The notes: generated from the letters alone by a model not told the origin. DNA of 48,117 nucleotides from Chthoniobacteraceae bacterium (GCA_031409655.1 JANNXQ010000213.1:1-48117), one strand, 5' to 3'. Shown: positions 1-18,326, counted from the first letter of the stretch. Made by a program: numbers and translations.

Positions 1-177
1 GCCGTTGAGCGCTCAGCACTCGGCATGTCTGCCGACAAACCCCTGCGCTTCGATTTCAAATGGACGGACAACATCCCCGCCAATGCCGAAGGAATGGACT
101 TCCTCGACCATTGCGACACCGCGCCCAACGCACGCTTCAACTTCCGCTACATCGCTCCCATCATTTATGAGCCGTGA
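1..177 (+). CDS. 3' end of a hypothetical protein (partial, runs off the window)
   Basis: Frame +1 open from base 1 to TGA 175-177: ...LRFDFKWTDNIP...DFLDHCDTAPNARFNFRY...; looks like a real protein C-terminus. Confidence 0.6.
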   Translation, partial: AVERSALGMSADKPLRFDFKWTDNIPANAEGMDFLDHCDTAPNARFNFRYIAPIIYEP

Positions 178-233
178 CTCCGTCCCTCGCACGGATGGAT
201 GGATTGAGCGCAGTTCCTCGTTACCATCCTGCC

Positions 234-1046
234 ATGAGCACGGCCTACTTCACACGACGCGACCTCTTTAAACTCGGTGCCGCTGCTGCGGCGGCGATCT
301 TTATCTCTGGTGCGCACGCAGCCAATCCCAAGACGCCGCTCACCCTCATGAATGAAATCGGGAAGGTGCTGTTCGCCGATGATTTTTCCTCGCCCACTCT
401 CGATGCCCGCTGGAAGCAACCGAAGGGGCAATGGCGGGTGGTGGATGGCACGCTCAAGGGATTGGAGATCGAGGCGCAGAAGTATGGGGCGCATACCAAG
501 ACGCAGCTCGCTTTTGGTCGCACTTCGGTGATCCGCTATCGGTTCAAAATGGCTGGGACGAAGAAGACCGGGATCAACATTGATGGAGCCAAGGGGCACA
601 TCTGCCGGGTGATCATCGAGCCGCATGGGTTCATCGTGCAGAAGAATGGTTCGTCCACCGATCCCTCCGATCCGGCGCGGCTTCTGGACGCCGCTGCTTT
701 CAATTTCAAGCCGGGCGAATGGTATGCGCTCACCGTGGAGTTCAACGGCGACACCGTGCTGGCCTGGATTGACGAGCAGCACTACGTCCTCGGCTCCGAT
801 CCGAAGCTTGATCAAGAGAAGACTTCCTTCGCGCTGGCCTGCCGGGGCGTGGAGGCGAAGGACGAGGCGACGTTTTTCGATGACGTGCAAGTGTGGGATG
901 CCGCGCCTCGCGCCGACTGGGCCGCGCGTAAGGCGAAGATGCTCACGCAACATGCGCCCGCGCCTCTGCCGCCCATCGCTGGGCCGGACCACTACAAAAA
1001 CGCGCAGGCCCAGCGTGCCAGAAAAGCCGCTGCCCCGGCAAAGTGA
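234..1046 (+). CDS. Tat-exported DUF1080/LamG-like beta-sandwich protein
   Basis: ATG 234; TRRDLFK twin-arginine signal plus AHA cleavage site; LFADDFS...W..VDG.L and W..LTVEF.GD motifs. Confidence 0.65.
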   Translation: MSTAYFTRRDLFKLGAAAAAAIFISGAHAANPKTPLTLMNEIGKVLFADDFSSPTLDARWKQPKGQWRVVDGTLKGLEIEAQKYGAHTKTQLAFGRTSVIRYRFKMAGTKKTGINIDGAKGHICRVIIEPHGFIVQKNGSSTDPSDPARLLDAAAFNFKPGEWYALTVEFNGDTVLAWIDEQHYVLGSDPKLDQEKTSFALACRGVEAKDEATFFDDVQVWDAAPRADWAARKAKMLTQHAPAPLPPIAGPDHYKNAQAQRARKAAAPAK

Positions 1047-1066
1047 GGCCGCACGAAAACCTGCCC

Positions 1067-3514
1067 ATGCTCTCGCACCGTTTTATTCTCATCTGCCTCG
1101 TGCTCGCTGCGCCAATCGCCGTCGCGGCGGACTCGTCGGCATTTCAGAAAGCCATCGCGCCGTTTCTGGAAACGCATTGCGCCGACTGCCATGACGACAC
1201 GACGCAGAAAGGGAACTTCCGCGTGGACATCCTCGCGCCAGACCTGGAGAAAGCCGACTCGTTGAAACACTGGGAAAAGGTTTTCGACCGCGTGGCGAGT
1301 GGGGAGATGCCGCCGAAGAAAAAAGCGCGTCCGCCGCTGAGCGAGTCGGCGGCTTTGCTCGGCTGGATCGAGACGCAGATGAAGGCTGAGGGCGAAAAAC
1401 GTCATGCCACCGAGGGACGTGCGCAACGCCGTCGGCTTAATCGCATTGAGTTTGAAAACACCCTGCGCGATCTGCTCGGCGCGGACATCCGCGTGGCCGC
1501 GCAGCTCCCCGAGGATGGCACCGCACACGGCTTCAGCACCGTGGACGAGGCGCTCACGCTCTCCGGTGTGCAGATGGAAAAATATCTGGAAGCCGTGGAC
1601 GCCGCGCTCGACACCGCGCTCGGAGGAACCCAGCCACCACCGAGCAAAATGCGGCGCTTCACTTACATGACGAAGGATAAGTCCGACCAGTTCGAGCGGG
1701 AACGCTTCGAGATTGGCAAGCGGCTCGGAAAGTCGGTGGCGATCTTTTCCTCCAATGACGCGAAGCCGCCGTGGGGCATTCGCGAGTTCAGCGCGCCCGC
1801 GCCGGGCCGCTATCGGATTCGCGTGAAGGCCAATGCGTATCAAAGCCGCGGCCAGCCCGTCGCCTTCCAGATCACGAGCGGCTTTTTCTTTTTGCTCAAA
1901 GGTGCCCCGACGCAACTCGTCGGCTATTACAGCGCGCCCGCCGGTACTCCGACCGTCATTGAGGCGGAGGCCTACATCCAGGCGACGCGCGACAGCTTTC
2001 AGATACTCCCGTTCGGCCTGCCGAAGATGAAGGTGCCGGGCGGGGTGAAGGAATACGCCGGCCCTGGGCTGGAGGTGCATTGGATCGAGATCGAAGGCCC
2101 GCTTGATGGAATGCAATGGCCGCCCGCCACCCGCGCCGCGCTGCTCGGCAACCTCGATCCGGCGAAGGCGACTGAAACCGATCTCCACCGGCTGCTGCGG
2201 GACTTCGCGCCACGCGCTTTTCGCCGTCCGGTCGCCGACGCCGACCTTGCACCGTATTTAGAAATCGCGTCGGCTCAGTTGAAAAAAGGCGCGTCCTTTG
2301 AGCAGGCGTTGCGCACCGGCTTCAAGGCCATCCTCGTCTCGCCGCACTGCCTCATGCTCGACAGCGCACCGGGACGGCTCGACGGCCACGCGCTCGCCTC
2401 GCGACTCTCCTACTTTCTCTGGAGCACGATGCCCGACGCGCCGCTGCTCGCCGCAGCATCCGCTGGCGAACTCACGAATCCGCAAAAGCTGCACGCGCAG
2501 GTCGAGCGGATGCTCGCGCATCCCAAAGCGAGCGCTTTCACGGAAAACTTCACCGCGCAATGGCTCGCGCTGAATACGATCGATGCCACGACCCCGGACA
2601 AGCAGCTTTACCCGGAGTTCGACGCGCTGCTGCAATTCTCCATGCTCCACGAGACGCGTGGCTTCTTCGACGAGGTGCTGCGGAATGATCTCAGCGTCCT
2701 GTCGTTCATTGATTCGGACTGGGCGATGGTGAACCAGCGGTTGGCCGAGCATTACAAGCTCTTCGCGAAAGATGGTGCGCCGCCAGTCGCCGCTGAGTAT
2801 TCATCAACCGTGGCAGCCAGCCCGCTGGTCGGCGGCCTCGACGTGCAGCGCATCGCGCTCCCGCTCGGCAGCCGACGCGGCGGTTTGCTCACGCAAGGTG
2901 CCGTGCTCAAGGTGAGCGCGAATGGCACCACCACTTCGCCCGTCGTGCGCGGCGTCTGGCTGCTCGAACGCCTCCTCGGCGCTCCGGTGCCTCCACCGCC
3001 GATGAATGTCGCCGCCATCGAGCCGGACATCCGCGGTGCCACGACGATCCGCGAAATGCTCGACAAACATCGCGCCGCCGAGCAATGCGCCAGTTGCCAC
3101 AACAAGATTGATCCGCCCGGCTACGCGCTGGAAAATTACGACGTGATCGGCGGCTACCGCGAGCGCTACCGCATCGTCGCCGCCGAAGATGAAGCTGCGA
3201 AGACAGCGCAGGGTAAGGGCAAGAAACCGCAGCTCCGTTTCAAGTCCGGCCCGGCTGTTGATCCCAGCGACAAGCTGCCAACTGGCGAGGCATTTCACAA
3301 CATGGAGGAATTCAAGCGGCTCATGCTCACGCGCCCCGAACCGATCGTGCGCGGTCTCACGGAACGGCTGCTGATTTACTCCACCGGCCATGGCATCGAG
3401 TTCGCCGACCGCGCCGCCGTCTCCGCTATCGTCGGCGATGCGCAGCAGAAAAACTACGGTTTCCGCTCGCTCATCCATGCCGTGGTGCAGAGCGAGACAT
3501 TCCTCAACAAATGA
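1067..3514 (+). CDS. DUF1592/DUF1588 family protein with planctomycete-type cytochrome c domain
   Basis: Signal peptide, CADCH and CASCH heme motifs, RRLNRIEFENTLRDLLG, LASRLSYFLWS, TSPVVRGVW. Confidence 0.9.
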   Translation: MLSHRFILICLVLAAPIAVAADSSAFQKAIAPFLETHCADCHDDTTQKGNFRVDILAPDLEKADSLKHWEKVFDRVASGEMPPKKKARPPLSESAALLGWIETQMKAEGEKRHATEGRAQRRRLNRIEFENTLRDLLGADIRVAAQLPEDGTAHGFSTVDEALTLSGVQMEKYLEAVDAALDTALGGTQPPPSKMRRFTYMTKDKSDQFERERFEIGKRLGKSVAIFSSNDAKPPWGIREFSAPAPGRYRIRVKANAYQSRGQPVAFQITSGFFFLLKGAPTQLVGYYSAPAGTPTVIEAEAYIQATRDSFQILPFGLPKMKVPGGVKEYAGPGLEVHWIEIEGPLDGMQWPPATRAALLGNLDPAKATETDLHRLLRDFAPRAFRRPVADADLAPYLEIASAQLKKGASFEQALRTGFKAILVSPHCLMLDSAPGRLDGHALASRLSYFLWSTMPDAPLLAAASAGELTNPQKLHAQVERMLAHPKASAFTENFTAQWLALNTIDATTPDKQLYPEFDALLQFSMLHETRGFFDEVLRNDLSVLSFIDSDWAMVNQRLAEHYKLFAKDGAPPVAAEYSSTVAASPLVGGLDVQRIALPLGSRRGGLLTQGAVLKVSANGTTTSPVVRGVWLLERLLGAPVPPPPMNVAAIEPDIRGATTIREMLDKHRAAEQCASCHNKIDPPGYALENYDVIGGYRERYRIVAAEDEAAKTAQGKGKKPQLRFKSGPAVDPSDKLPTGEAFHNMEEFKRLMLTRPEPIVRGLTERLLIYSTGHGIEFADRAAVSAIVGDAQQKNYGFRSLIHAVVQSETFLNK

Positions 3515-3518
3515 CCCC

Positions 3519-4793
3519 ATGAAGACTTCACTTACCCGCCGCTCCTTCCTTCGCGCCGCAGGCTCCACGCTCGCGCTGCCCTTGCTTGAATCGCTGCTGC
3601 CGCGCGGAGCCTTCGCCGCCGCTGCGAGCGGGCCGCGTCGCATGGTCTGCATCTGCACCACGCTCGGCATCAACGCGGAAAACATCTTCCCGAAAGCGAC
3701 CGGGCGCGGTTACGAGCTAACGCCGTATCTCGTGCCGTTGCGCGAGCTGCGCGATGATTTCACCCTCTTCTCCGGCGTCGCGCATCCCGAGGTGGATGGC
3801 GGCCATTCGAGCGAGGTGACTTTTCTCAGCGCCGCGCCGCATCCAAAGTCACCGGGATTCAAGAACAGTATTTCGCTCGATCAATTCCTGCTCGAAAAAC
3901 AGCCCGCCACGACGCGCTATGCGAACCTCAACCTCACGACCTCCAACCTCCAGGAGAGCCTGTCCGTCTCGCGCACCGGCGTGATGCTGCCTGCCGGCGA
4001 CAAGCCGTCGGTGGTCTTTCGGCGGCTCTTCGTCAACGGCACGCCCGCTGAAGTCGCGGCGCAGACGCACCGGCTCGCCGAAGGCCGCAGCATCATGGAC
4101 CTCATGGGCGAGGAAGCGCGCCGCCTGCAGCGCCGCGTGAGCGCGCACGACGGCCAGCGGCTGGACGAGTATTTCACGAGCGTGCGCGAGGTCGAGCAGC
4201 GCCTCCACCAGTCGCAGCAATGGGCCGCGAAGCCGAAGCCGTCCGTCGCCGCCGCGCCGCCCGTGGACATTCCTGGCACCGCCGACTTCGCGGGCCAGAC
4301 GCGGCTGATGTTCGACCTCATGCAACTCGCGCTCGCGAACGATTCCACGCGCGTCATCACCTTCCGCATCCAGGGTCAGCAGGCTGTGCCACCGCTGCCT
4401 GGTGTGAAGGAAGGCTGGCACAACCTCTCCCATCACGGCAAAGACCCGGAGAAACTGGAGCAACTGCACGTCATTGAGCTTGAGCAAATGAAGCTGCTTG
4501 CCGGCTTCCTCGCGAAGCTGAAAGCCACGCAGGAGAACGGCGATTCATTGCTCAACCACACCTCCGTCCTCTACGGCTCAAACCTCGGCAACGCCTCCAG
4601 CCACGACACAACAAACCTGCCCGTGATCCTCGCCGGCGGCGGCTTCCAGCACGGCCAATACCTCGCCTACGACGCGAAGGACAATCAACCGCTCTGCAAT
4701 CTCTACGTCGCCATGCTCCGCCAGCACGGCATTGACGCGAGCAAGTTCGCATCGAGCAAAGCCACGAGCCTGCCGGGATTTCAGGGCGTCTAG
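3519..4793 (+). CDS. DUF1552 family protein (Tat signal)
   Basis: TRRSFLR..G..LALPLLESL, HNLSHHG, NLPVILAGG; usual partner of DUF1592. Confidence 0.9.
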   Translation: MKTSLTRRSFLRAAGSTLALPLLESLLPRGAFAAAASGPRRMVCICTTLGINAENIFPKATGRGYELTPYLVPLRELRDDFTLFSGVAHPEVDGGHSSEVTFLSAAPHPKSPGFKNSISLDQFLLEKQPATTRYANLNLTTSNLQESLSVSRTGVMLPAGDKPSVVFRRLFVNGTPAEVAAQTHRLAEGRSIMDLMGEEARRLQRRVSAHDGQRLDEYFTSVREVEQRLHQSQQWAAKPKPSVAAAPPVDIPGTADFAGQTRLMFDLMQLALANDSTRVITFRIQGQQAVPPLPGVKEGWHNLSHHGKDPEKLEQLHVIELEQMKLLAGFLAKLKATQENGDSLLNHTSVLYGSNLGNASSHDTTNLPVILAGGGFQHGQYLAYDAKDNQPLCNLYVAMLRQHGIDASKFASSKATSLPGFQGV

Positions 4794-4830
4794 CTGCATC
4801 TCATGACACGCATCTAGACCACCCTCTACA

Positions 4831-5595
4831 ATGGCGCTTTCATCGACCGCGACGGCATCGGCACGAAGGAATCGAAGACGGGGCGGCTGGATTAACCTCG
4901 CTGTTGAAACGCGACGGCTGGGTGCATGTTTATCGCACGGCGCGCGTATCAAGGAACTTGTCCGCGACGGTGATATGCTCCGCGGAGTCGTTTTTGAACA
5001 GGACGGCCGTGAGACTTTTCTTCGCTGCCGGCATTGCGTAGTGGCACTGGGCGGCTGGGGAGCGGAGCTTCTACGGGCGATTGACGTCGAGCTTCCAGTC
5101 CGCCGTTGGAAGAGTAACATCGCTACCGTCGAAGGTGAACTGGTGCCTCGCATCACCGCCTGGCTCGACGCCCCGTTTCTCACGGCCGTTCCCTTCCAAG
5201 GCCAAACCCTTATCGCCGATACTCGCCGTGTCCTGGTTACTTCCGGTGATGACGCGACTCCGGTCGAATCAAACCTTGAGTTGCTTCGCCATGATGCCGT
5301 TGCGAATCTACCGTTTCTGCGTTGGAGCGATCTCAAGATCGCTCGCGTGCATGCTGCCATCAAAACTGAGTTTGCGGTTGGATCAGGTGGCAATCAGGAT
5401 TTTGCAGTTTTTCAGAAAGCGGATCATGGGGTCGAGGGGTTGACGGTGGCGCTCCCCGGCAAGGCCAGCCTCATGTTTGCCCTTGCCCGGCAAGTGGCCG
5501 ACCAAGTCGAGGCTAGCCTCGCTGCGAGGCATGAATGCCGTGATCTTGTAAACGATACTGCCCGTCGTCATAATTTGGGAAAATATCCGGGTTAG
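4831..5595 (+). pseudogene. FAD-dependent oxidoreductase C-terminal fragment
   Basis: VVALGGWG and PGKASLMFALA motifs but no N-terminal GxGxxG; its stop lies inside the IS630 left end. Confidence 0.5.
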
Positions 5596-6708
5596 ATATG
5601 AGCGCATGAAGGGCGAATATGTTCGCATTAGTTTTGTATGAGGCACTAAGTTAAGGGATGACTAAGCTAGCTCTTACGGAGTCGGAACTCGAAGACATCG
5701 CCGAAGCATTGGATAGTCCGGAGGTGATGGAGAAGTTCAAGGTCAAGCTGCTGGTCTTGCGCATGCATCACGAAGGAGTCGAGCATGGGATCATCGCTCG
5801 GGCGGTGAGTAAGCATCCCAACACCATTACAAGCTATCTCAAGGAATACGCCGAGGGCGGACTCATCGCCTCACTCGAGGATCGGGCCTATAAGCCGAGC
5901 AGCACTTTGCAGCCTTTCATGACGTGCCTGCGCTGCTCTTTCACGGTGGCGGCGCCTTCCACGGTCAAACACGCCGTCGCGCGCATCGCTGCGCTCACCG
6001 CAATTACGGTCTCCGAAGAGCAAGCGCGGCGCTTGATGAAACGGCTCGGCATGCGCTATCGCAAGAGTGGCTCGATTCCCGGCAAGTCCGATCCGCAGCA
6101 ACAGTTTGATTTTCTTCGCAACGAACTGGAACCGCGGCTCATCGAAGCGGCGCATGGCCGGCGGAAGGTCTTCTTTGTCGATGCGGCGCACTTTGTTCTC
6201 GGCTGCTTTTTGGGAATGATCTGGAGCTTCAAGCGCCTCTTCATCAAGGGCGCCTCTGGCCGGCAACGCTATAACGTCCTTGGCGCTGTGGATAGCCACA
6301 GCAAAGAGGTCATGACGGTGCGCACGACGGACAATATCAATGCACTCACCATCTGCCAACTTCTCGAGATGCTTGCCACGAAGCACTCAGAGATTCCCGT
6401 CACCATTGTCTTGGACAATGCACGCTACCAGCGATGCGAATGCGTCAGAACACGGGCCGCTGAACTCGGCGTGGAGCTTCTCTTCCTCCCCGCCTACTCG
6501 CCCAACCTCAATCTGATTGAAAGACTTTGGAAACTCACGAAAACAAAATGTCTTCGCAATAGATACTATCCCGAGTTCTCGCTCTTCACCTCTGCCATTG
6601 ACTCATTCCTCGACTCGATCAACTCCTCTTATCAAAAGGAACTCGAATCCTTACTTACCCTCAACTTTCAACTCTTCAGCAAATCCTGATTTATGCAGGC
6701 GGGGAGTA
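5556..6708 (+). mobile_element. IS630-family insertion sequence
   Basis: TA at 5556-57 and 6707-08; imperfect terminal IRs TACTGCCCGTCGTCATAATTTGGGA vs revcomp TACTCCCCGCCTGCATAAATCAGGA (18/25 match). Confidence 0.8.
5658..6689 (+). CDS. IS630-family DDE transposase
   Basis: N-terminal HTH; FFVDAAHF, VLDNARYQ, LPAYSPNLNLIERLW motifs. Confidence 0.95.
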   Translation: MTKLALTESELEDIAEALDSPEVMEKFKVKLLVLRMHHEGVEHGIIARAVSKHPNTITSYLKEYAEGGLIASLEDRAYKPSSTLQPFMTCLRCSFTVAAPSTVKHAVARIAALTAITVSEEQARRLMKRLGMRYRKSGSIPGKSDPQQQFDFLRNELEPRLIEAAHGRRKVFFVDAAHFVLGCFLGMIWSFKRLFIKGASGRQRYNVLGAVDSHSKEVMTVRTTDNINALTICQLLEMLATKHSEIPVTIVLDNARYQRCECVRTRAAELGVELLFLPAYSPNLNLIERLWKLTKTKCLRNRYYPEFSLFTSAIDSFLDSINSSYQKELESLLTLNFQLFSKS

Positions 6709-6744
6709 AAGATCAGACCGGGGCAGCACCGGTAGCCGGCTCCA
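6709..6744 (+). pseudogene. 3' remnant of a tRNA (U73 + CCA) adjoining the IS630 end
   Basis: T-arm-like ACCGG-GGCAGCA-CCGGT followed by AGCCGGC-T-CCA; no 5' half found. Confidence 0.5.
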
Positions 6745-6749
6745 CTTCT

Positions 6750-6825
6750 AGCCCTGTAGCTCAATCAGCGGAGCGCCCGGCTTTGAATCGGGAGGTTGAT
6801 GGTGCGAATCCATCCGGGTCCGCCA
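6750..6825 (+). tRNA. tRNA-Gln(UUG), atypical
   Basis: Anticodon arm CCCGG-ctTTGaa-TCGGG; T-loop TGCGAAT; CCA encoded; mismatched acceptor stem. Confidence 0.75.
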
Positions 6826-6856
6826 CTCATCGCCGCGCACAGCGCGCGGCATTCAC

Positions 6857-6931
6857 GCGCCGGTAGATCACTAGCAGATCGCCGCACCGACATTGCGGAG
6901 GCAGGCGGGACAGAACCGCCCCGGCGCACCA
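6857..6931 (+). tRNA. tRNA-Val(GAC), atypical
   Basis: Perfect acceptor GCGCCGG/CCGGCGC, A73, CCA; CCGCA-ccGACat-TGCGG (C33); T-loop GACAGAA. Confidence 0.75.
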
Positions 6932-6941
6932 TTTCCTCAAG

Positions 6942-7017
6942 GCTCCCGTAGCTCAATGTATAGAGCACCGCGCTTCGAACGCGGAGGTTGCAGGCGAAAT
7001 TCCTGCCGGGAGCACCA
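6942..7017 (+). tRNA. tRNA-Arg(UCG), atypical
   Basis: GCTCCCG/CGGGAGC acceptor; CCGCG-ctTCGaa-CGCGG; T-loop CGAAATT; CCA. Confidence 0.85.
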
Positions 7018-7025
7018 CTCATTTT

Positions 7026-7100
7026 CCCGGCGTAGCCCAATGCAGAGGCAACGAGCTCAGACCTCGTCCAGTGCGGGTGCAAGTCCTGCCGCCGGGACCA
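7026..7100 (+). tRNA. tRNA-Leu(CAG), short variable loop
   Basis: CCCGGCG/CGCCGGG; ACGAG-ctCAGac-CTCGT; 5-nt variable loop; T-loop TGCAAGT; A73 + CCA. Confidence 0.85.
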
Positions 7101-7104
7101 TTTC

Positions 7105-7177
7105 GCTCTCGTAGCCCAACAGCAGAGGCAGCGGACTTAAACCCCGCGCAGTGTCGGTGCGAATCCGACCGGGAGCA
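7105..7177 (+). tRNA. tRNA-Leu(UAA), short variable loop
   Basis: GCTCTCG/CGGGAGC; GCGGA-ctTAAac-CCCGC; T-loop TGCGAAT; A73; no encoded CCA. Confidence 0.8.
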
Positions 7178-7186
7178 TTTTTCAAC

Positions 7187-7262
7187 GCCCACGTAGTCCA
7201 ACAGCAGAGACGTCCGCCTCAAAAGCGGAACAGTGCGAGTGCAACTCTCGCCGCGGGCACCA
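7187..7262 (+). tRNA. tRNA-Leu(CAA), short variable loop
   Basis: GCCCACG/CGCGGGC; TCCGC-ctCAAaa-GCGGA; T-loop TGCAACT; A73 + CCA. Confidence 0.85.
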
Positions 7263-7264
7263 AT

Positions 7265-7357
7265 GGAACGTGAACCGGACAAGCGAGCCGGGACTCTTTG
7301 CTAAAGAGATCGTTGCGCATTTCGCGTGATGGGGAGCATGCCCTCCGCGTTCCGCCA
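7265..7357 (+). tRNA. tRNA-Ser(GCU), atypical, long variable arm
   Basis: GGAACGT/GCGTTCC acceptor, G73, CCA; CTCT-ttGCTaa-AGAG; long variable arm; divergent D and T arms. Confidence 0.75.
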
Positions 7358-7368
7358 TTTCATCAAAC

Positions 7369-7444
7369 GCCCGTGAATGCAAAGAGCCGAGCCCCCGGTC
7401 TTTCAAGCCGGACCTAGTGGGTGCGAGTCCCACCACGGGTGCCA
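7369..7444 (+). tRNA. tRNA-Glu(UUC), atypical
   Basis: GCCCGTG/CACGGGT; CCGGT-ctTTCaa-GCCGG; T-loop TGCGAGT; G73 + CCA. Confidence 0.8.
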
Positions 7445-7456
7445 TTTCACAACAAC

Positions 7457-7533
7457 GGTCGCGTAGCCCAACTGGAAGAGGCACGGCGTCGAGAACGCCG
7501 CGAGTGCTGGTTCAAATCCAGCCGCGACTACCA
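7457..7533 (+). tRNA. tRNA-Leu(GAG), short variable loop
   Basis: GGTCGCG/CGCGACT; CGGCG-tcGAGaa-CGCCG (C33); canonical TTCAAAT T-loop and D-loop GG; A73 + CCA. Confidence 0.85.
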
Positions 7534-7537
7534 TTTA

Positions 7538-7609
7538 GAACCCGAAGCTTTGATAGCGAAGCCGCCGCCTTTTAAGCGGCTCAGGAGGGTGCAAGTCCCT
7601 ACGGGTTTA
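7538..7609 (+). tRNA. tRNA-Lys(UUU), atypical
   Basis: GAACCCG/CGGGTTT; GCCGC-ctTTTaa-GCGGC; T-loop TGCAAGT; A73; no CCA. Confidence 0.75.
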
Positions 7610-7617
7610 TTTCCTTT

Positions 7618-7844
7618 CCGCCGGGTTCGCCATCGCAGCCGCACGGCATCGCCGCACGCGGTTCTGCACATCGGCTCACCGGCGGCTCACCAGGTAATCG
7701 GCCTAAAAACCGAGATTGGGTTCAAGTCCCACAAAACCGATCCACGGCGGTGACCCGCGCGCAAGCGCACTCGCGACGCAGCCTGCGCAGCCAACCGAAA
7801 GGTCACACTGCCCGCTGCCGAACGGTGGCCGCCGCCGTGGATCG
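7618..7844 (+). ncRNA. Unclassified structured RNA following the tRNA array
   Basis: Long irregular hairpin 7618-7685; tRNA-like T-arm TGGG-TTCAAGT-CCCA near 7717-7731; perfect 13-bp stem 7738-7750/7832-7844 closing several small hairpins, two with GNRA loops. Confidence 0.5.
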
Positions 7845-7873
7845 CATCTTTCAACCAACAACCAACCAACACC

Positions 7874-8671
7874 ATGACCACCGAACAGATCCTCATTCTC
7901 ATCCTCGCGGTCGCCGGCTTCGTCGTGGCGAACTTTGTCCGCGCCCGCTACCGCCACGAGTTCATCGTGAACGAAGGCTTCGCGGGCCTGCTCTACCATG
8001 AGGGTAAGCTCATCGAATCACTCGCCGCGGGCCGCCACGTCCGCTGGGGTAAGAACTTCCGCGTCGCGCTCGTCGATACGCGCAAGACGCTGCTCCAGGT
8101 CGCCGGCCAGGGAGTGCTCAGCGCCGATAACGTCGGCGTAAAGCTCAGCATCGTGCTCACCGCGCAGATCGTTGATGCCGCGAAGAGCGTGCAGGCCGCG
8201 GACAACCACGCGGCGCACATCTACAGCGCAACGCAGACGGCCGTCCGCACCGTCGTCGCCGGTGTCACGATGGAAGCGCTGCTCACCCAGCGCGTCGCCA
8301 TCGGCGCGCAGCTCGGCGAACTCATCGCGCCGCAGGCCGAAGCCGTCGGCGTGCAAGTTCATGCGGTCGAGGTGCGCGACGTGATGCTGCCAGGCGAACT
8401 GCGCAAGGCCTTCAGCGAAGTGCTCAAGGCCAAGCAGGAAGGCCAGGCCGCGCTCGAACGCGCCCGCGGTGAATCTGCCGCGCTGCGCAACCTCGCGAAC
8501 GCGGCGCGCCTCATCGAAGGCCAACCGGCGCTCGCGACACTCCGCTTCCTGCAAACGCTCGAAGCGTCCAATGCGGGCCAGACGTTCGTGATGAACGACC
8601 TCTCGGCCCTGCTCCCGTCGCTCAGCTCGCGTGGCGCCAGGCCGTCCACGCCTGAGCCGGGAGAAACGTAA
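7874..8671 (+). CDS. SPFH/band-7 (slipin-like) protein
   Basis: N-terminal TM helix; LSADNVGVKLS, EVRDVMLPGELR, ALERARGESAALRNLANAAR. Confidence 0.9.
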   Translation: MTTEQILILILAVAGFVVANFVRARYRHEFIVNEGFAGLLYHEGKLIESLAAGRHVRWGKNFRVALVDTRKTLLQVAGQGVLSADNVGVKLSIVLTAQIVDAAKSVQAADNHAAHIYSATQTAVRTVVAGVTMEALLTQRVAIGAQLGELIAPQAEAVGVQVHAVEVRDVMLPGELRKAFSEVLKAKQEGQAALERARGESAALRNLANAARLIEGQPALATLRFLQTLEASNAGQTFVMNDLSALLPSLSSRGARPSTPEPGET

Positions 8672-8698
8672 ACCAAAGCTGTGAGGGGGAAACACAAA

Positions 8699-8728
8699 GC
8701 CCCGGCGGGGATTCGTCTCCGCCGGGGT
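8699..8728 (+). terminator. GC-rich hairpin (UUCG loop) after the SPFH gene
   Basis: GCCCCGGCGGGGA-TTCG-TCTCCGCCGGGGT; weak U-tract. Confidence 0.45.
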
Positions 8729-9070
8729 GATTCTCCTCCCACCAAACACCTACACCCATGCCCATCCCAAGCATCCTGGGTCAGGGCGTATTCCTCATCT
8801 GGTTTCTCCTCGTCGCCTTCGCGCGCCCGGGATCTCAAAGACGCTCAGCAATTCAGCATCGATGTTCCGAACGCGACGCCGTCGCGCCGGAACATCGCGC
8901 AAGAATCCCGCTGGATCGGTTGCCTGACAGCGCTTCGCTGGCGGGCGTGCCGCTGCGGATTCTGCTCAGCGACCGTCCCGGTCCCGGAGCCCTGCTGAGA
9001 GATACGCTCATGATCCGTCCATCCACACGCGATCCGTAATCAATCCACCAACATAGAAAGGAGGTTCCCC

Positions 9071-9937
9071 ATGCACGGGAACGAAGTCTTCCAGCGCGTC
9101 CGCCACGCGCTCGCTCAGGTCGAAGCCGAGCGAAACGTGCGCGTGCTTTTCGCGTGCGAGAGCGGCAGCCGCGCGTGGGGTTTTGCCTCGCGCGACAGCG
9201 ACTACGACGTGCGCTTTCTCTACGTCCACCGGCGCGACTGGTATCTCTCGGTCGAGGACCGGCGCGACGTCATCGAACAGCCCATCGCCGACGATCTCGA
9301 CGTGAGCGGCTGGGAACTCCGCAAGGTGCTGCGACTGCTCCGCAAGAGCAACCCGCCGCTGCTCGAATGGCTGAAGTCGCCGGTCGTGTATCGTCACGAT
9401 CCGGCCTTCGCCGCCGAGTTCGGCGCGCTGGCGACGGAGTTCTATTCGCCGCGGCGCTGCTTTGCGCACTACCTGCACATGGCCTTCGGCAACTGGCGCG
9501 ATTACCTGCGCGGTCGCGAGGAAGTGAGCCTGAAGAAGTATCTCTACGTCTTCCGACCGCTGCTCGCGTGCCGCTGGATCGAGCGCCAACTCGGCCAGGT
9601 GCCGATGCTCTTCGCGCAACTCGTGGAGAGCGTGCTCGACGAAGCCGACGTGCGCGCCGCGCTCGCGGAACTCGTCGCGCGCAAGCAGGCCGGCGAAGAA
9701 CTCGCCGTCGCGCCGCCGGTCGAAGTGCTCACGCGATTCATCGAGGCCGAACTGCCAAGGCTCGAAGCGCTCAACGAGCCTGACGATGCCGCGGGCGAAG
9801 TGGAGGAGCTGAACGGCTTCCTCCGCGCTACGCGCTCGCGGCTTGAGAGGAGGAGGAGCTTCGTCGGGGTGTGGAATGCGTCGCAAGCGGGACGAGGCGT
9901 CCAACGATCAGAATGGCGATTGGAGAAGCGAACTTGA
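9071..9937 (+). CDS. RlaP/YcgL-like Pol-beta nucleotidyltransferase
   Basis: ESGSRAWGFAS.DSDYDVRF, DVSGWELRK, SNPPLLEWL.SP, LKKYLY; SD GAAAGGAGG; C-terminus probably extended by a 1-nt frameshift (alternative frame ends YALAA* at TGA 9844-46). Confidence 0.9.
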   Translation: MHGNEVFQRVRHALAQVEAERNVRVLFACESGSRAWGFASRDSDYDVRFLYVHRRDWYLSVEDRRDVIEQPIADDLDVSGWELRKVLRLLRKSNPPLLEWLKSPVVYRHDPAFAAEFGALATEFYSPRRCFAHYLHMAFGNWRDYLRGREEVSLKKYLYVFRPLLACRWIERQLGQVPMLFAQLVESVLDEADVRAALAELVARKQAGEELAVAPPVEVLTRFIEAELPRLEALNEPDDAAGEVEELNGFLRATRSRLERRRSFVGVWNASQAGRGVQRSEWRLEKRT

Positions 9938-11105
9938 GCGAATTGGGAACGGCAGCTATTTGGGAAGTCGGGGCGCGTCGAACCGCTTCGTTTATCAACT
10001 CATGGCCACCGATGATTTCATCCTCCGTGCCGCTGAATACGGCGGGTGCGCAACTCCTTCCCAATGGGATGTTGCGCAACAAGCTAGGGCTAACCACATT
10101 GAGAAGCTGTTTGACAAACTGACCGAATATTATCTGCGCTCGGTAGTTCCTCCCGAAGCCATCCATTGGGTTGATTCGCTAAAACTCGACTGGATCAACG
10201 ATGAAAGTGTCAATGCGCTTGCAATGTTTTCTGGCCGGAAATGTCGCATTGCATTCTTTTCCGGCATTGTAGGGAGACTATGGGACGCTTTCGTGGCGGT
10301 AGCCGCTCATCCGTTGCACCTCAAATCCGTGCCAGGCGCAATACCTCCGAAAGAAATTTTCCGCCTCAATCTTTCACAAATGGTGCCTAAAATCATCCGC
10401 CGCGGCGCCGATGATACAACTAGAGCGACTCTTGATAGTTTCGCCAGCTTGGCCTCAAGACGCATCGATATCGTCACAGATCTTTATCGTGTTAGCGTCG
10501 AATTCTTGTTGATGCACGAAATTCATCACTTCTGGGGGGGGCATCTCTTTTATTCACAAGCACTTCGCAAACGAGGCCTGACACAAGCGGAGAGCACATC
10601 TTGGCCTCCCTTGGAGCCGCTTCTTCATCAAGCCTTTGAATGGCAGGCTGACTACCTCGCGGTGAAACGACTAGTCGAAGCTTATGCGCTTATGGAGATC
10701 GATCGGGAAGTCTTTCTCACCAATTGGATAACCGCACTGGCGGTTCTGTTTTTACTCTTTCACCCATCTCCCACCGATTTCAAAGACCATGAAGCCAGTT
10801 TCTACCTGCATCCTCACGTCCGCTTTCTTGAGATAATTACCTCCTTGTGCGTCCATGTCCAAGCGGCATTCGACTTTTCGGATGAAAAATTCGATGCCAT
10901 TCTTTCCCAGGCCTTCGCCGAGGTGGCGTTAATCGATGTTTCTGGCAAAAATGACGTTCTCGGACCGTTCTATTTCGCATTTCAGAACTCGGCCATTGGT
11001 CAGCAGAGATCCGCGGTCGTTCGGGAACGACTTCGCGAAGCGCTTCCTCTGTTGGAGGAATCAAGACTTCAAATGCTGGTCTTTTTAGCCGCTGAAAACA
11101 CTTAG
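9843..11105 (+). CDS. HExxH zinc peptidase, Lit/peptidase U49-like (start uncertain)
   Basis: FLLMHEIHHFWGGH, E.QAD..A, HP.VRF motifs; visibly lower GC than the flanks. Confidence 0.6.
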   Translation: MRGGGASSGCGMRRKRDEASNDQNGDWRSELERIGNGSYLGSRGASNRFVYQLMATDDFILRAAEYGGCATPSQWDVAQQARANHIEKLFDKLTEYYLRSVVPPEAIHWVDSLKLDWINDESVNALAMFSGRKCRIAFFSGIVGRLWDAFVAVAAHPLHLKSVPGAIPPKEIFRLNLSQMVPKIIRRGADDTTRATLDSFASLASRRIDIVTDLYRVSVEFLLMHEIHHFWGGHLFYSQALRKRGLTQAESTSWPPLEPLLHQAFEWQADYLAVKRLVEAYALMEIDREVFLTNWITALAVLFLLFHPSPTDFKDHEASFYLHPHVRFLEIITSLCVHVQAAFDFSDEKFDAILSQAFAEVALIDVSGKNDVLGPFYFAFQNSAIGQQRSAVVRERLREALPLLEESRLQMLVFLAAENT

Positions 11106-11566
11106 GTGTCGCTCAGAGCGAGCGGCTTGCCTGTCTTCGGGTCTATCAGGTTCTGACTCACGCAATAGGCAGCGACACTTATTTTGGCGATACTCACGAT
11201 AAGGAGTTTCACAAAAGGCGCTAGAATCGCCGCCTCGATGCCGAGTGTCTTACCGAACGCTGATATTAAACCCGTCAATAAAATCGTTTCAAAAACGGCG
11301 TTTGCGTTCCGAGCCTTTTCTCGAATATCGGCATATTTCGGCTCATCAGTGCATACGAACAGCCGAAACTCCAGTTTGAGTTGGTTCCAGTAACGAGGCA
11401 GAGTCGCAAAATGTGCATCCGGGTGAACCCGCCTCGCGAGTTCTTCGCCCGCAATCTCTACATCTCTACTCGCTGCGGCCCATAACACTCGATCCGACAT
11501 CAACTCGTTCGTCAGCATTGGCTCCGCGCTTACAAATAGTATGTCGAGCGACCTCTGATGTGGCAT
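11102..11566 (-). CDS. Hypothetical protein with hydrophobic C-terminal helices
   Basis: 154-aa lower-GC ORF convergent with the peptidase; YW..LK.EF..F.C.D..KY motif. Confidence 0.55.
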   Translation of the reverse strand: MPHQRSLDILFVSAEPMLTNELMSDRVLWAAASRDVEIAGEELARRVHPDAHFATLPRYWNQLKLEFRLFVCTDEPKYADIREKARNANAVFETILLTGLISAFGKTLGIEAAILAPFVKLLIVSIAKISVAAYCVSQNLIDPKTGKPLALSDT

Positions 11567-11848
11567 GCAGCAAGTTATACTGCTCTACCGCTCCGCAATC
11601 AACCGCGATATCGAGGGCCGGGCCGGTCCACGGCCTGGCCTAGGCGGAGGCACCACGCTATTTGATGGAGGCAGATTCTTCCGAACGGAATCACCAAACG
11701 AAATGCTAAGCCCTCATCGCCCTCGACCCGACGGCGGCGCGCTGGGGCTGGCAGGTCCGCTTCCGCAATGCGGAGGTGTATGCGCGCGCGGCAATGTGCG
11801 TCATCGCGACCACGCGACGATCCGCTGCAGTAGTGGCACCGCGTCTGA

Positions 11849-11902
11849 ATGAACACCGAAACTGCGACGCCCGCTACGGCGAACGTCGCATTCCTCGATT
11901 GA
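11849..11902 (+). other. Candidate leader peptide MNTETATPATANVAFLD upstream of rtcB
   Basis: 17-codon uORF within two hairpins, ending 13 nt before a strong terminator-like stem; no clear SD. Confidence 0.35.
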
Positions 11903-11915
11903 GGAAAGACACAAC

Positions 11916-11958
11916 GCAGCCGGGGAGGGTGACAAGCCTTCCCCGGCTGTATTCTTTC
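11916..11958 (+). terminator. Terminator/attenuator-like hairpin upstream of rtcB
   Basis: GCAGCCGGGGAGGG-loop-CCTTCCCCGGCTGT followed by ATTCTTTC. Confidence 0.55.
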
Positions 11959-12038
11959 GACAAAAAAAGAACAAACACCGCTGCGCACTCGGAGTGTGTC
12001 CGCACGCTGCGCCCATCATTTACAACCGAACCAAAACC

Positions 12039-13517
12039 ATGAACACCAAAGACCTCATCCGCCTCGGCGTGCCTGTCGGCGAGCCGATCGAGCTCGCGCA
12101 CGAGTTCATCCAGAACTTCATCGCGGAGGGGAAGGACGGCGCGTTGCTTGAGGCCGAGATTTTCAACATCGTCGCCAACCCTCCGGAGTTCTTCGCCGAT
12201 GAACTGCGCGCGCCGCTGGCTCGCGCGATCTATCGCCCGGCGTTCACGCCGCGCGCGGAATTGCCGCTCCGGCGGCTATGCGGTGACCGTTCCGCGGTTG
12301 GGAGGAAGGCGCTGCCGCGCAGAGCGTTCGCGCCGTGGCGCCAGTGGGGCGAGGGGCTCGAAGCCGAGGCGGTGAAGCAGATGGCCAATGCGTGTGCGCT
12401 GCCGGTCGCGGTCGCGGGCGCGCTCATGCCGGATGCGCACGTCGGCTACGGCCTGCCGATCGGCGGCGTGCTCGCGACGGATAACGCGGTGATTCCTTAC
12501 GCCGTGGGCGTGGACATCGCGTGCCGCATGAAGTTGACCGTCTATGATCGCAAGGCGAACACCCTCGCCGGCCAGCGCGACCGCCTCGCGAACCTCATCG
12601 AGAGCGAGACGCGCTTCGGCATGGGCTGCGAGTTCAAGCAGCGCCGCGAACACGACGTGATGGACGAAGATTGGAGCGTTTCGCCGGTGACGAACCGGCT
12701 GCGCGACAAGGCTTGGTCGCAGCTCGGCACGAGCGGAAGCGGCAACCACTTCGTCGAGTTCGGTGCGTTCACCGCAGATGCGGAGCAGGCGCAGGCGCTT
12801 GGCCTTTCTCACGAAGGACCGGGCGAATACCTCGCGCTGCTCACGCACTCGGGTTCGCGCGGAACCGGTGCGCAGGTGTGCGACTACTACAGCAAGCGCG
12901 CGATGGCTCGCCACGAGCACTTGCCGAAGGAACTCAAACACCTCGCGTGGCTCTCGCTCGACGACGCCGATGGCCAGGAATACTGGGCCGCGATGAACTT
13001 GATGGGCCGCTACGCCGCGGCGAATCACGCGCTCACCCACAAGCACATCGGCAAGAAGCTCGGTGCGCACGTGATCCTCGACATCGAGAACCATCACAAC
13101 TTCGCGTGGAAAGAAACGCACGTCGTGAATGGTGAAGAGCGCGAGGTCATCGTGCATCGCAAGGGCGCAACGCCTGCGGGCGCCGGCGTGCTCGGGGTCA
13201 TCCCAGGCTCGATGGCGTCTCCGGGCTACGTCGTGCGCGGCAAGGGTTCGCCCGAGTCCCTCACCAGCGCGTCGCACGGCGCAGGCCGCGTGATGAGCCG
13301 CACCAAGGCGATGCAGTCGTTCACCTGGAGCGCGACCAAGAAGCTGCTCGCGGAGCGCGGCGTCGAGCTGCTCTCCGCGGGTCTCGATGAAGTGCCGGGC
13401 GTCTATAAGGACATCCACGCTGTCATGGCCGCGCAGACCGATCTGGTCGAACTCCTCGGCCAGTTCGACCCGAAGCTCGTGAAGATGTGCCCAGCCGGCG
13501 ACCGCGCCGAAGACTGA
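12039..13517 (+). CDS. rtcB: RtcB RNA-splicing/repair ligase
   Basis: MPDAHVGYGLPIGG, VGVDIAC, QLGTSGSGNHF, HSGSRG, HHNFAW, HRKGAT, SASHGAGR, DEVPGVYKDI. Confidence 0.97.
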   Translation: MNTKDLIRLGVPVGEPIELAHEFIQNFIAEGKDGALLEAEIFNIVANPPEFFADELRAPLARAIYRPAFTPRAELPLRRLCGDRSAVGRKALPRRAFAPWRQWGEGLEAEAVKQMANACALPVAVAGALMPDAHVGYGLPIGGVLATDNAVIPYAVGVDIACRMKLTVYDRKANTLAGQRDRLANLIESETRFGMGCEFKQRREHDVMDEDWSVSPVTNRLRDKAWSQLGTSGSGNHFVEFGAFTADAEQAQALGLSHEGPGEYLALLTHSGSRGTGAQVCDYYSKRAMARHEHLPKELKHLAWLSLDDADGQEYWAAMNLMGRYAAANHALTHKHIGKKLGAHVILDIENHHNFAWKETHVVNGEEREVIVHRKGATPAGAGVLGVIPGSMASPGYVVRGKGSPESLTSASHGAGRVMSRTKAMQSFTWSATKKLLAERGVELLSAGLDEVPGVYKDIHAVMAAQTDLVELLGQFDPKLVKMCPAGDRAED

Positions 13518-13522
13518 CCACC

Positions 13523-13556
13523 GCGGAGGCGGGACGCTGACCCGTCTCGCCTCCGC
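13523..13556 (+). other. Intergenic hairpin between rtcB and HNH
   Basis: GCGGAGGCGGGACG/CGTCTCGCCTCCGC 14-bp stem. Confidence 0.5.
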
Positions 13557-13580
13557 ATCACTCTCAACAATCACTTTTCA

Positions 13581-14162
13581 ATGAACGACATCCTCAACAA
13601 ATCGACCGTGCTGGTGCTGAACCGGCACTGGCAGGCGATCCACGTGAAGACGCCCGCAGAGGCGTTCTGCATGATCGCCACCGGCGCCGCCACCGCGCTC
13701 GACGTGCAGGGCGACGACTACATCACGCCCGTGCGCTGGGACGACTGGCTCAAGCTGCCCGTCCGCGAGCACGACAACGCCGTGAACACCCCACGCGGTC
13801 CCGTGCGCGTGCCCACCGTCATCGTCGCCGCCAACTACGCCAAGGTTCCGCTGCGCCGCCCGCGCTTCGGCGCCCGCGGCATCTGGGAGCGCGACGGCGG
13901 CATCTGCCAATACACCGGCCGCAAGCTCGCGCCGAAGGACGGCAACATCGACCACGTCGTTCCGCGCTCCCGCGGTGGCAAAACGTCCTGGGACAACTGC
14001 GTCCTCGCCCACCGCGAAGTGAACTCGCGCAAAGCCAACCGCCTGCCCCACGAAGCCGGTCTGCGCCTGCGCAAGCAACCAGTCGCGCCGCGCGTGGTGC
14101 CAGCCAGCGTGTTGATCCGCAATCACCACGGCGTCCCCGACTGGCAGCATTTCCTCGGTTAG
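13581..14162 (+). CDS. HNH endonuclease
   Basis: VLVLN, RDGGICQYTG, IDHVVPRSRGG.TSWDNCV, N.RKANR.P.EAG. Confidence 0.93.
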   Translation: MNDILNKSTVLVLNRHWQAIHVKTPAEAFCMIATGAATALDVQGDDYITPVRWDDWLKLPVREHDNAVNTPRGPVRVPTVIVAANYAKVPLRRPRFGARGIWERDGGICQYTGRKLAPKDGNIDHVVPRSRGGKTSWDNCVLAHREVNSRKANRLPHEAGLRLRKQPVAPRVVPASVLIRNHHGVPDWQHFLG

Positions 14163-14388
14163 CGCCAAATCGCGACCGTCACCTACCTGCGCTATATACC
14201 AGATGAGCAGCTTGTGTATCCCGCCGTGTATCCCCGTGGAAAAACTCCGTGCATCAACGTGCCGCTCTGTGCCGCTAATCTATCACCCGCGAAGCCCGAT
14301 GTTACCTTGGTGCGGTGGCATTCCGTGCCGCATTGTGCCCCTTCCTTCCACTCCATGCCGCTTCCTCTGTGCGAACCGCTACCCCTGA

Positions 14389-15564: not shown

Positions 15565-18326
<2,762 letters not shown>

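Follow-up and report, generated by a model that had tools for sequence, protein, structure and literature searches.

A truncated tRNA array with a recoded elbow beside RNA repair genes in a Chthoniobacteraceae bacterium

We analysed a stretch of 48,117 nucleotides (the whole of it hereafter called the window) from a Chthoniobacteraceae bacterium (GCA_031409655.1, JANNXQ010000213.1:1-48117), in which ten tRNA-like units, A to J, lie on the plus strand between positions 6750 and 7609, as established by reading of the sequence, ARAGORN at a lowered threshold and a cloverleaf search that is blind to the loops. A transposase gene precedes this array, and a structured non-coding stretch follows it, succeeded by genes for a Band-7 protein, the RNA repair proteins RlaP and RtcB and an HNH endonuclease (Table 1). 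The units fold into the tRNA cloverleaf (Rfam RF00005), with stems of 7, 4, 5 and 5 bp and an anticodon loop of 7 nt, and it is their elbow, formed by the D-loop and the T-loop, that departs from the common pattern.

Table 1 Features of the window in and around the tRNA array.
Feature	Position	Strand	Particulars
IS630-type DDE transposase gene	5658..6689	+	Pfam DDE_3 9.6e-23; HTH_33 above cut-off; HTH_29 23.3 bits, below its cut-off of 28.1
Cut tRNA, 3' fragment	6717..6744	+	T-arm ACCGG-GGCAGCA-CCGGU, acceptor 3' strand, discriminator U, CCA (hairpin scan and reading)
Unit A, tRNA-Gln(UUG)	6750..6825	+	T-loop UGCGAAU; D-loop AAUCAGCG (A18 G19); G73; CCA; acceptor A1xC72 and C3xU70; Rfam tRNA 49.9 bits
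Unit B, tRNA-Val(GAC)-like	6857..6931	+	T-loop GACAGAA (A55); D-loop ACUAGCA; C33; CCA
Unit C, tRNA-Arg(UCG)	6942..7017	+	T-loop CGAAAUU (G55 A56); D-loop AAUGUAUA (U19 A20); Rfam 64.8 bits
Unit D, tRNA-Leu(CAG), class-I-shaped	7026..7100	+	T-loop UGCAAGU; D-loop AAUGCAG (U18 G19)
Unit E, tRNA-Leu(UAA), class-I-shaped	7105..7177	+	T-loop UGCGAAU; D-loop AACAGCAG; A31xC39 mismatch; CCA not encoded
Unit F, tRNA-Leu(CAA), class-I-shaped	7187..7262	+	T-loop UGCAACU; D-loop AACAGCAG; CCA
Unit G, tRNA-Ser(GCU)-like, class II, long variable arm	7265..7357	+	T-loop AGCAUGC (A54 G55 C56 ... U58); D-loop ACAAGCGAG
Unit H, tRNA-Glu(UUC)	7369..7444	+	T-loop UGCGAGU; D-loop AAGAGCCG; weak D-stem; G73; CCA; Rfam 30.5 bits
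Unit I, tRNA-Leu(GAG), class-I-shaped	7457..7533	+	T-loop UUCAAAU; D-loop AACUGGAAG (UGG); C33; Rfam 53.1 bits
Unit J, tRNA-Lys(UUU)	7538..7609	+	T-loop UGCAAGU; D-loop UGAUAGCG; A8-U14 swap; CCA not encoded
Structured non-coding stretch	7625..7860	+	Between array and Band-7 gene; long stem and T-arm-like hairpin UGGG-UUCAAGU-CCCA
SPFH/Band-7 gene	7874..8671	+	Pfam Band_7 8.3e-30; 95% identical copy downstream of the G026 array
RlaP nucleotidyltransferase gene	9071..9937	+	Pfam RlaP 3.8e-92; syntenic in G017, G002, G026, G029 and G028
Low-GC insertion	9900..11560		GC 49-51% against about 65% around
RtcB RNA ligase gene	11994..13517	+	Pfam RtcB 7.5e-85
HNH endonuclease gene, L-array-linked type	13581..14162	+	Pfam HNH_4 and HNH; syntenic in 8 related loci

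In the consensus elbow, the D-loop contributes G18 and G19 and the T-loop U54, U55 and C56, and the contact between G18 and pseudouridine 55 (Psi55) is regarded as nearly invariant in cytoplasmic tRNAs. Both U55 and the GG dinucleotide are absent from nine of the ten units. As an initial annotation made from the sequence alone had noticed, the T-loop TTC gives way to TGC in six units (A, D, E, F, H and J), to GAC in unit B, to CGA in unit C and to AGC in unit G; the six TGC units carry AGC or UGC in place of the D-loop GG, unit I (Leu-GAG) is the sole unit of the ten with TTC and also the sole one with GG, and the stems are largely intact (178 of 189 pairs in the nine class-I units). All of this held in our analysis. 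Despite the altered positions 18 and 55, G19-C56 or U19-A56 is retained. U33 is found in eight units, with C33 in B and I, and CCA is encoded by eight, E and J being without it. The four units with Leu anticodons (7026-7262 and 7457-7533) are all class-I sized, at 73-77 nt with a variable region of 5 nt, whereas the host's own Leu tRNAs, which include all five anticodons, are class II and measure 82-86 nt.

The Rfam tRNA model places seven of the ten units above its gathering score (30.5-64.8 bits), and ARAGORN at default settings reports five, all within 6750-7533. Unit B, which both miss, shows 21 of 21 stem pairs in the loop-blind search, and unit J shows 20 of 21; the variable and anticodon arms of unit G have compensatory pairs in an alignment fold of four copies, and ARAGORN also reports this unit once its threshold is lowered. 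Standard tRNA finders thus overlook such genes, and arrays of this type are under-annotated. Outside the array, ARAGORN made 52 predictions (several doubtful) that cover all amino acids except Ile. A filter for 5/5 T-stem pairs and at least 6/7 acceptor pairs was passed by 45 of them, and 43 of these have TTC, the two exceptions being a 63-nt prediction of doubtful standing and, on another contig, a lone Cys tRNA whose T-loop has TGC. The elbow pattern of the window is far from chance, and the array tRNAs are supernumerary to a full, canonical housekeeping set. The lone Cys tRNA (anticodon GCA; contig C210 of the same genome, G000, 1904-1979) stands outside any array, with the T-loop UGCGAGU and a D-loop without GG, and weakly resembles the array's Cys unit in the related genome G028 (78% over 59 nt).

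By BLASTN, the array is matched in 25 of 61 genomes (60 relatives plus G000), and within the same family in 16 of 36. Eight genomes have strong matches (E < 1e-40) at 73-94% identity, and several other genera hold arrays 73-90% identical to that of the window, identities between different genera reaching 84-90%. The nine class-I units of the window served to build a covariance model, which gave 171 matches in 260 kb of the relatives' surroundings, where the arrays are longer than that of the window and collinear, with 15-32 class-I units each (32 within 3.5 kb in G028) and a conserved order of Gly, fMet, Ala, Asp, Arg ... Gln, Val, Arg, Leu, Leu, Leu, Ser, Glu, Leu, Lys. The window aligns with the last third of the G028 array at 89% identity over 901 bases, the homology starting at 6715, and where the window holds a cut 3' fragment of a tRNA, G028 has a whole Thr-GGT unit whose T-stem is the same. 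The IS630-type element upstream showed no terminal inverted repeats, and the remaining portion of the array was not found elsewhere in the 94.9%-complete assembly. Since only the last third is matched, a cut tRNA and a transposase gene mark its upstream side and no other piece was found, what the window holds is the remaining 3' third of a long tRNA array (L-array) whose 5' side was truncated by an IS630-type insertion.

An insertion sequence lies at the edge of the array and related designs are found on viral contigs; on comparative grounds we regard the L-array as probably horizontally spread. Because the public genome records with the nearest HNH relatives carry the labels Luteolibacter, Verrucomicrobiaceae or Verrucomicrobia, the host is probably verrucomicrobial. 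Upstream of the full array of G028 (L021, 1774-6030) lie genes for a group II intron reverse transcriptase, a DUF3102 protein and a DUF5131 protein, which suggests a mobile or phage-derived setting there.

The comparison of homologous array tRNAs that the initial annotation had proposed was carried out in two ways. An alignment of 146 units, obtained from the 150 best-scoring ones after removal of three flanking housekeeping tRNAs and one unit with a T-loop insertion, has G at position 55 in 133 units, U in 12 and A in one, with C at position 56 in 137 and with positions 54/58 combined as U-A (92), C-A (17), G-G (17), A-U (13) and A-A (5). A loop-blind survey scored units by stem pairing only, with positions 19 and 18 set from the 3' end of the D-loop, 19 pairing with 56, and position 55 ignored. 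Limited to arrays of at least four class-I units and to distinct sequences, it comprised 367 array tRNAs; qualifying arrays stood at 9 of 80 HNH-linked genome loci and 7 of 80 viral loci, to which the relatives' loci and the Anabaena array were added, and the sets were grouped by the HNH-similarity rank of the locus and by collection. In the window, the loci of six relatives and the 15 loci with the closest HNH genes, most of them labelled Verrucomicrobia (together the verrucomicrobial-type set), 148 of 192 distinct units are A18/G55 and 11 are G18/U55, with smaller numbers of G18/G55 (10), pyrimidine-18/G55 (17), A18/A55 (1) and unassigned units (5). The 92 distinct units from other bacterial phyla divide into 5 A18/G55, 80 G18/U55 and 7 others, and the 83 from viral contigs into 27, 49 and 7, respectively. 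In the pooled sets, whose counts are phylogenetically non-independent, A18 is present in 180 of 213 G55 units and G18 in 140 of 147 U55 units, while the mixed combinations A18/U55 and G18/G55 number 2 and 10. A18 thus predominates among the two position-18 partners, A and U, that the initial annotation had named; U, counted here together with C, is a minority (17 of the 192 units of the verrucomicrobial-type set).

Four ortholog groups with the same anticodon and near-identical stems (Leu-GAG, Gly-GCC, Arg-UCG and Glu-UUC) hold both states, and in these the two positions have always switched jointly. For example, Leu-GAG has UGG with UUC in the window, G028 and G026 and AGC or AGU with UGC in G017, G023, G033 and L042, and Gly-GCC has GGG with UUC in G055 and AGC or AGU with UGC elsewhere. 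Six G55 units inside otherwise canonical arrays (from Anabaena, a Planctomycetaceae record, a Kofleriaceae record and three viral contigs) all have A18. At the neighbouring contact, all seven aligned copies of Arg-UCG combine the CGA T-loop (A56) with a UAUA D-loop (U19 A20), a Watson-Crick swap of G19-C56, and purine 57 is kept in 206 of 208 G55 units. Nine distinct units, all from the Lys and Thr-GGU groups, have U8-A14 swapped to A8-U14. The G55 T-loops fall into four discrete classes, UGCRANY, GGCRGMA, AGCRUUA and CGCRAUA, with U-A, G-G, A-U and C-A, respectively, at 54/58; the 7-mer AGCGUUA is common to low-GC viral contigs and verrucomicrobial-type arrays, and the G55 unit of Anabaena (GGCAGUA) belongs to the GGCRGMA class.

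The array units also carry signs of function outside the elbow. In an alignment that leans towards the window-built model, 95.9% of 2888 stem cells are paired, 960 of them through compensatory change, a level that 0 of 500 shuffles reach. G3:U70, U73, C73, G73 and a weak 1-72 pair are synthetase identity elements, and we find G3:U70 in the Ala units, U73 in Cys, C73 in His, G73 in Gln, Glu, Asp and Asn, and a weak 1-72 pair in Gln. CCA is encoded by 86 of 125 distinct array units, and C33 is present in 22 of the 125, mainly in Val-GAC, Ile-GAU, Asp-GUC and Leu-GAG. If the units were pseudogenes drifting in their loops, neither the coupled loop changes nor the stem pairing, the kept identity bases and the conservation of anticodons and gene order across genera would be accounted for, and we consider decay of the lineage highly improbable. 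Coupled loops, paired stems and kept identity bases argue instead for selection on a working L-shape, so the proposal of a compensated 18/55 elbow under selection rather than decay is upheld, through the coupled 18/55 changes, the joint ortholog switches, U19-A56, the paired stems and the identity bases. We judge the units to be real tRNAs with a recoded tertiary core, which would be charged and used in translation, and the compensated elbow is very probably functional by design in this lineage. The loss of the TruB substrate that had been put forward also stands, on chemical grounds, as G55 cannot be isomerised to Psi55; the genome nonetheless encodes TruB. Two further observations suggest identity remoulding inside the array: its Gly tRNAs (L021, L022, L024, L025 and L027) mostly have A73, against U73 in three of four host Gly tRNAs, and the acceptor stem GCUCCCG/CGGGAGC is common to Leu-UAA, Arg-UCG, Arg-UCU and Arg-GCG.

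The recoded design has a restricted distribution. Arrays from records labelled Verrucomicrobia (L042, L044, L047, L053 and the relatives' loci) have 80-100% G55; those beside HNH relatives in Planctomycetota, Elusimicrobia, Acidobacteria and Anabaena are canonical (0-1 G55 per array), and one Kofleriaceae locus is mixed (G55 in 4 of 10 units). Among the 80 viral loci, two bear recoded arrays, L174 (a 160-kb contig, G55 in 24 of 29 units) and L165 (an 83-kb contig, 14 of 15), both with phage-type genes (several HNH genes, a Ro-like RNA-binding protein family, a DNA methyltransferase and a head-tail adaptor). A BLAST search of plasmids with the array gave four single-tRNA matches and no array, and 140 BLAST records from cultured phages gave similarity of single tRNAs only; the two inspected, those of Mycobacterium phage Sheen and Gordonia phage Remus, show the canonical GGTTCGA and GG, and the L174 array matches cultured phages through its canonical Met tRNAs only. 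Within these searches, no cultured phage or plasmid carrying a recoded array was found.

This near-confinement to Verrucomicrobia-labelled arrays and two viral contigs is in line with a neutral origin, in which A18/G55, as one of several equally fit elbows and without adaptive meaning, had a single beginning in a mobile-element lineage and was passed on by descent or by copying among array members. The acceptor stem shared across the Leu-UAA and Arg identities hints at duplication and remoulding within the array. When the 32 unit stems of G028 were set against 123 U55 unit stems, the best match for the same amino acid came out ahead of the best match for another in only 8 of 32, giving no clear gene-by-gene orthology to canonical arrays. 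Descent by copying sits less well with the mean best stem identity, which is 0.63 within the array and 0.62-0.66 to other arrays, or with the viral arrays, whose similarity to the verrucomicrobial ones is weak and of the size of single tRNAs only. The six isolated A18/G55 units in otherwise canonical arrays and the joint flips in four ortholog groups point the same way. The recurrence of A18/G55 argues that it is a favoured, discrete solution, and we hold the neutral origin to be unlikely.

Several known systems resemble the locus in part. According to the accessible part of the text of PMC8421152 (Santamaria-Gomez et al. 2021), L-arrays hold up to 43 genes, well beyond the length of arrays that grow by accretion, are horizontally transferred and occur in several phyla including Verrucomicrobia; an HNH gene is conserved alongside them, rtcB lies nearby and is co-regulated, the arrays are silent in normal growth and induced by impaired translation, and aminoacylation in vivo is seen for 23 of the 26 tRNAs of the Anabaena array. 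Like the window, the plasmid delta L-array of Anabaena PCC 7120 consists of tandem, same-strand, supernumerary tRNAs for most amino acids with rtcB close by. In an alignment over the full length of the HNH protein of the window, identity to its counterpart beside the Anabaena trn operon (all8564 type) is 30% (E 2e-22). Both have short class-I Leu tRNAs (75-78 nt in Anabaena, 73-77 nt in the window), which looks like a shared L-array trait. The window's copy is cut to 10 genes, unlike full L-arrays, and its membership in a long single-strand array is seen through homology to G028. The elbow sets the two apart, since the Anabaena array is canonical (ARAGORN gives TTC in 22 of 24 units, one TGC and one misparsed T-arm, and U55 is found in 16 of 17 units of the loop-blind search), whereas the elbow is non-canonical in nine of ten window units and A18/G55 in about 90% of the relatives' units. 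The accessible text of PMC8421152 mentions neither T-loop, D-loop, G18 and elbow nor the word tertiary, and we found no prior description of a recoded elbow in the openly accessible full-text literature. The L-arrays, their HNH gene and the link to rtcB are already in print.

The T-loop of unit F is identical to the consensus T-loop UGCAACU (G55) of the tRNA-like structure of tymoviruses (Rfam RF00233), which is aminoacylated and accepted by tRNA enzymes and is the nearest natural precedent for a G55 T-loop. That structure is an element of a viral 3' UTR with a pseudoknotted acceptor, whereas the units of the window are free tRNAs. Homology of unit F to RF00233 was considered and rejected (18.5 bits against a gathering score of 40), the resemblance being one of the T-loop alone. 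Among engineered molecules, selected tRNAs with alternative T-loop/D-loop combinations, from the Steinberg laboratory, reportedly rebuild the elbow and work in vivo; those are artificial suppressors, whereas the present case is a natural, near-complete set with one recurrent alternative. Phage tRNAs, in turn, are described as escaping tRNA nucleases through changes in their loops (van den Berg et al. 2023, PMC10264068; also PMC11555353 and PMC11464382). Those of PMC10264068 are like the array in that tRNAs of mobile elements keep decoding while the nucleotides read by nucleases are altered; the cases in the accessible part of that text, which is without T-loop, D-loop or elbow, alter the anticodon loop, and here it is the tertiary core of nearly the whole set.

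The genes downstream of the array form a cassette in which the order array, RlaP, RtcB, HNH recurs in loci of eight related genomes, with RtcB copies 73-86% identical to that of the window downstream of the arrays in G028, G008, G029, G017 and G055. The non-coding stretch after the array has 68 pairs, eight of them with compensatory change, in an alignment fold of three genomes and matches no Rfam family in a search of 6400-8200 with E up to 10; an analogue of Y RNA and the leader of an operon are both possible identities for it. At the position of the Band-7 gene, G028 has a TROVE/Ro60 gene, preceded, where the window has this stretch, by a YrlA-like permuted tRNA-like RNA (40.8 bits, cut-off 69). 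In the window, a Pfam scan of 13 open reading frames (ORFs) within 174-18512 revealed no Ro60 (TROVE) gene, and the same Rfam search of 6400-8200 gave no match to YrlA-type RNA. The locus shares RtcB and RlaP with rsr-yrlBA-rtcBA operons and RlaP cassettes, and G028 also shares Ro60 and the YrlA-like RNA; Band-7 and a different structured RNA stand in their place in the window, where RtcA and RtcR were not seen. A tRNA array is not part of the classical rsr-yrlBA-rtcBA operon. RlaP extends damaged RNA 3' ends by one or two nucleotides, and heavily damaged tRNAs need it to regain function after repair, as stated in the accessible text of a preprint (10.64898/2025.12.29.696909).

The RlaP domain of the window is intact, and by comparison with the G017 copy its C-terminal tail is changed by the low-GC insertion that follows. 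This insertion has ORFs at 9843-11105 (plus strand, 420 aa) and 11102-11566 (minus strand, 154 aa) and displaces the greater part of the 268-aa gene found in G017 between RlaP and RtcB, leaving a remnant at 11565-11852 with the motif ARG-VRHRDHATI. The 268-aa protein (L024 6501-7307 in G017; also present in L044) is 48.6% identical between G017 and L044. Relative to G017, the RtcB of the window is longer at the N-terminus by about 43 residues, of which 15 precede the first methionine common to both copies and the others stem from an N-terminal segment of greater divergence, and it has an in-frame insertion of 22 residues after ...TPRAEL. Two ORFs of 267 aa and 987 aa lie 3' of the HNH gene (14698-18512). 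No Pfam or NCBIfam match was obtained for the ORFs 9843-11105, 11102-11566, 14698-15501 and 15549-18512 or for the relatives' 268-aa gene.

Taking these observations together, our preferred reading, which we consider somewhat probable, is that of a horizontally spread L-array beside repair genes whose compensated, recoded elbow evades a factor that reads the canonical elbow. The G18-Psi55 contact would be replaced by A18 with G55, the amino group of A18 taking over the hydrogen bond to position 55, where O6 or N7 of G would accept it, and G55 would still make the sharp turn. The stacking platform of G19-C56 and R57, used by RNase P, the CCA-adding enzyme and the ribosome, would be untouched, and with the outer G19-C56 (or U19-A56) and purine 57 kept, the L-shape should form. 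With G at position 55, no Psi55 can come from TruB. The recoded tRNAs would then escape a factor that reads the canonical U54-U55/G18 elbow, most likely a tRNA-inactivating nuclease of phage-host or interbacterial conflict, and the array would supply working tRNAs while RtcB and RlaP mend cleaved housekeeping tRNAs. That such evasion was the driver of the recoding is a tentative proposal, somewhat less than an even bet, and the initial annotation had likewise supposed that nucleases or regulators recognising the elbow might be evaded; it is favoured by the RNA-repair and mobile or phage setting, the existence of a tRNase that cuts the T-loop (the toxin CdiA-CT E479, in the accessible text of PMC9086364), phage tRNAs that dodge nucleases, and the frequent C33. 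The latter, which includes units B and I, is a further change at a turn nucleotide adjoining classic cleavage sites. A bolder version, on which we place less weight still, would see a transferable tRNA set, with A18/G55 in four T-loop classes and frequent C33 and A8-U14, as the replacement translation kit of phages and mobile islands, blind to an elbow-reading weapon or sensor; initiators would be exempt in that version if the weapon hits elongator tRNAs only, for example those bound to EF-Tu.

Self-sufficient folding would give the recoding another purpose, namely that a burst of 30-45 tRNAs folds correctly without Psi55, Gm18 or the TruB chaperone once the array is switched on in translational stress, when new modification enzymes cannot be made. 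The induction of L-arrays under impaired translation (PMC8421152) and the fact that G55 is unmodifiable by the genome-encoded TruB would both suit this, as would the recurrence of discrete T-loop classes in unrelated arrays, which resembles structural solutions and not escape from one reader. Canonical L-arrays (Anabaena, Acidobacteria, Elusimicrobia and Planctomycetota) share the same problem yet keep U55, however, and the canonical initiator tRNAs are left unexplained, and we regard the folding explanation as unlikely. The driver might also lie at the DNA level, where loss of the conserved GGTTCGANTCC box would shield the array from a homing endonuclease that cuts tRNA genes, be it the linked HNH protein or that of a competitor, or from recombination with housekeeping tRNA genes, the D-loop change being a secondary mending of RNA function. 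An HNH gene is present in all eight syntenic related loci and on viral contigs (in several copies in L174), and T4 SegB prefers to cut within tRNA genes (cited in PMC8421152), which lends the idea some appeal; homologous HNH genes flank canonical arrays too, though, and the four T-loop classes all retain G55-C56, resembling a constraint on RNA, so that we think a DNA-level driver quite improbable. Nor does HNH similarity track the type of elbow, and the idea that the HNH clade dictates the elbow type was rejected, the HNH protein of the U55-majority locus L126 being 50.5% identical to that of the window and those beside the G55 arrays L174 and L165 35% and 41%.

Several points weigh against the preferred reading of an elbow recoded for evasion. 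With regard to the elbow itself, the model behind the 146-unit alignment came from the units of the window itself, A18 is absent in 33 of 213 G55 units, and C20 accompanies G55 more often than U55 (54% against 32% of units), so position 20 is possibly the real partner of G55 and C20-G55 could be an alternative pairing to A18-G55. With regard to the motive, initiator-like CAU tRNAs always have UUC and GG in both verrucomicrobial and viral arrays and would therefore still be vulnerable unless the elbow-reading factor spares initiators. RtcB or Ro60 also flank canonical U55 arrays of other phyla (L074 and L077), so the link to repair is general and the recoding an added feature that it does not explain, and this analysis identified no nuclease or other factor specific to the canonical elbow.

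The remaining points of this kind concern the window's own copy. Its array is truncated, unit B has a private change of G55 to A where four orthologous units have G55 (GGC in three and GGT in one), the stems have one or two mismatches more than those of the G028 orthologs, and a scan limited to the sigma-70 consensus recognised no promoter before the truncated array. Units A, E and F have one stem mismatch each that is absent from the G028 or G026 orthologs. Contigs from three metatranscriptome studies cover parts of the array (90-99% likeness) and Band-7 but not 7710-8117, one of 73 nt coinciding exactly with 7369-7441 in unit H; being contigs from RNA libraries, they may reflect DNA carry-over. 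A weaker form of the decay explanation, in which the window's copy alone is an inert remnant, draws on the same features: an insertion sequence cuts the array and a second insertion disrupts the cassette, and to the private A55, the mismatches in A, E and F and the lack of a promoter match can be added the absence of CCA from E and J. Its stems are nevertheless paired at 178 of 189 positions against 181 of 189 in G028. The window copy is eroded, though slightly at most, and we see the chances as evenly divided that it is still useful to its host.

What the locus offers is a natural replacement of the G18-Psi55 contact over dozens of tRNAs of varied identity, with a defined compensating partner. 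This provides a ready-made series for asking how the elbow is built and how it is read by RNase P, the CCA-adding enzyme, TruB, the ribosome and nucleases, as well as natural tRNA scaffolds for synthetic biology that should not be substrates of TruB. If the escape motive is true, the arrays would point to an unknown elbow-directed tRNA weapon and to a counter-strategy in which the whole tRNA set is replaced.

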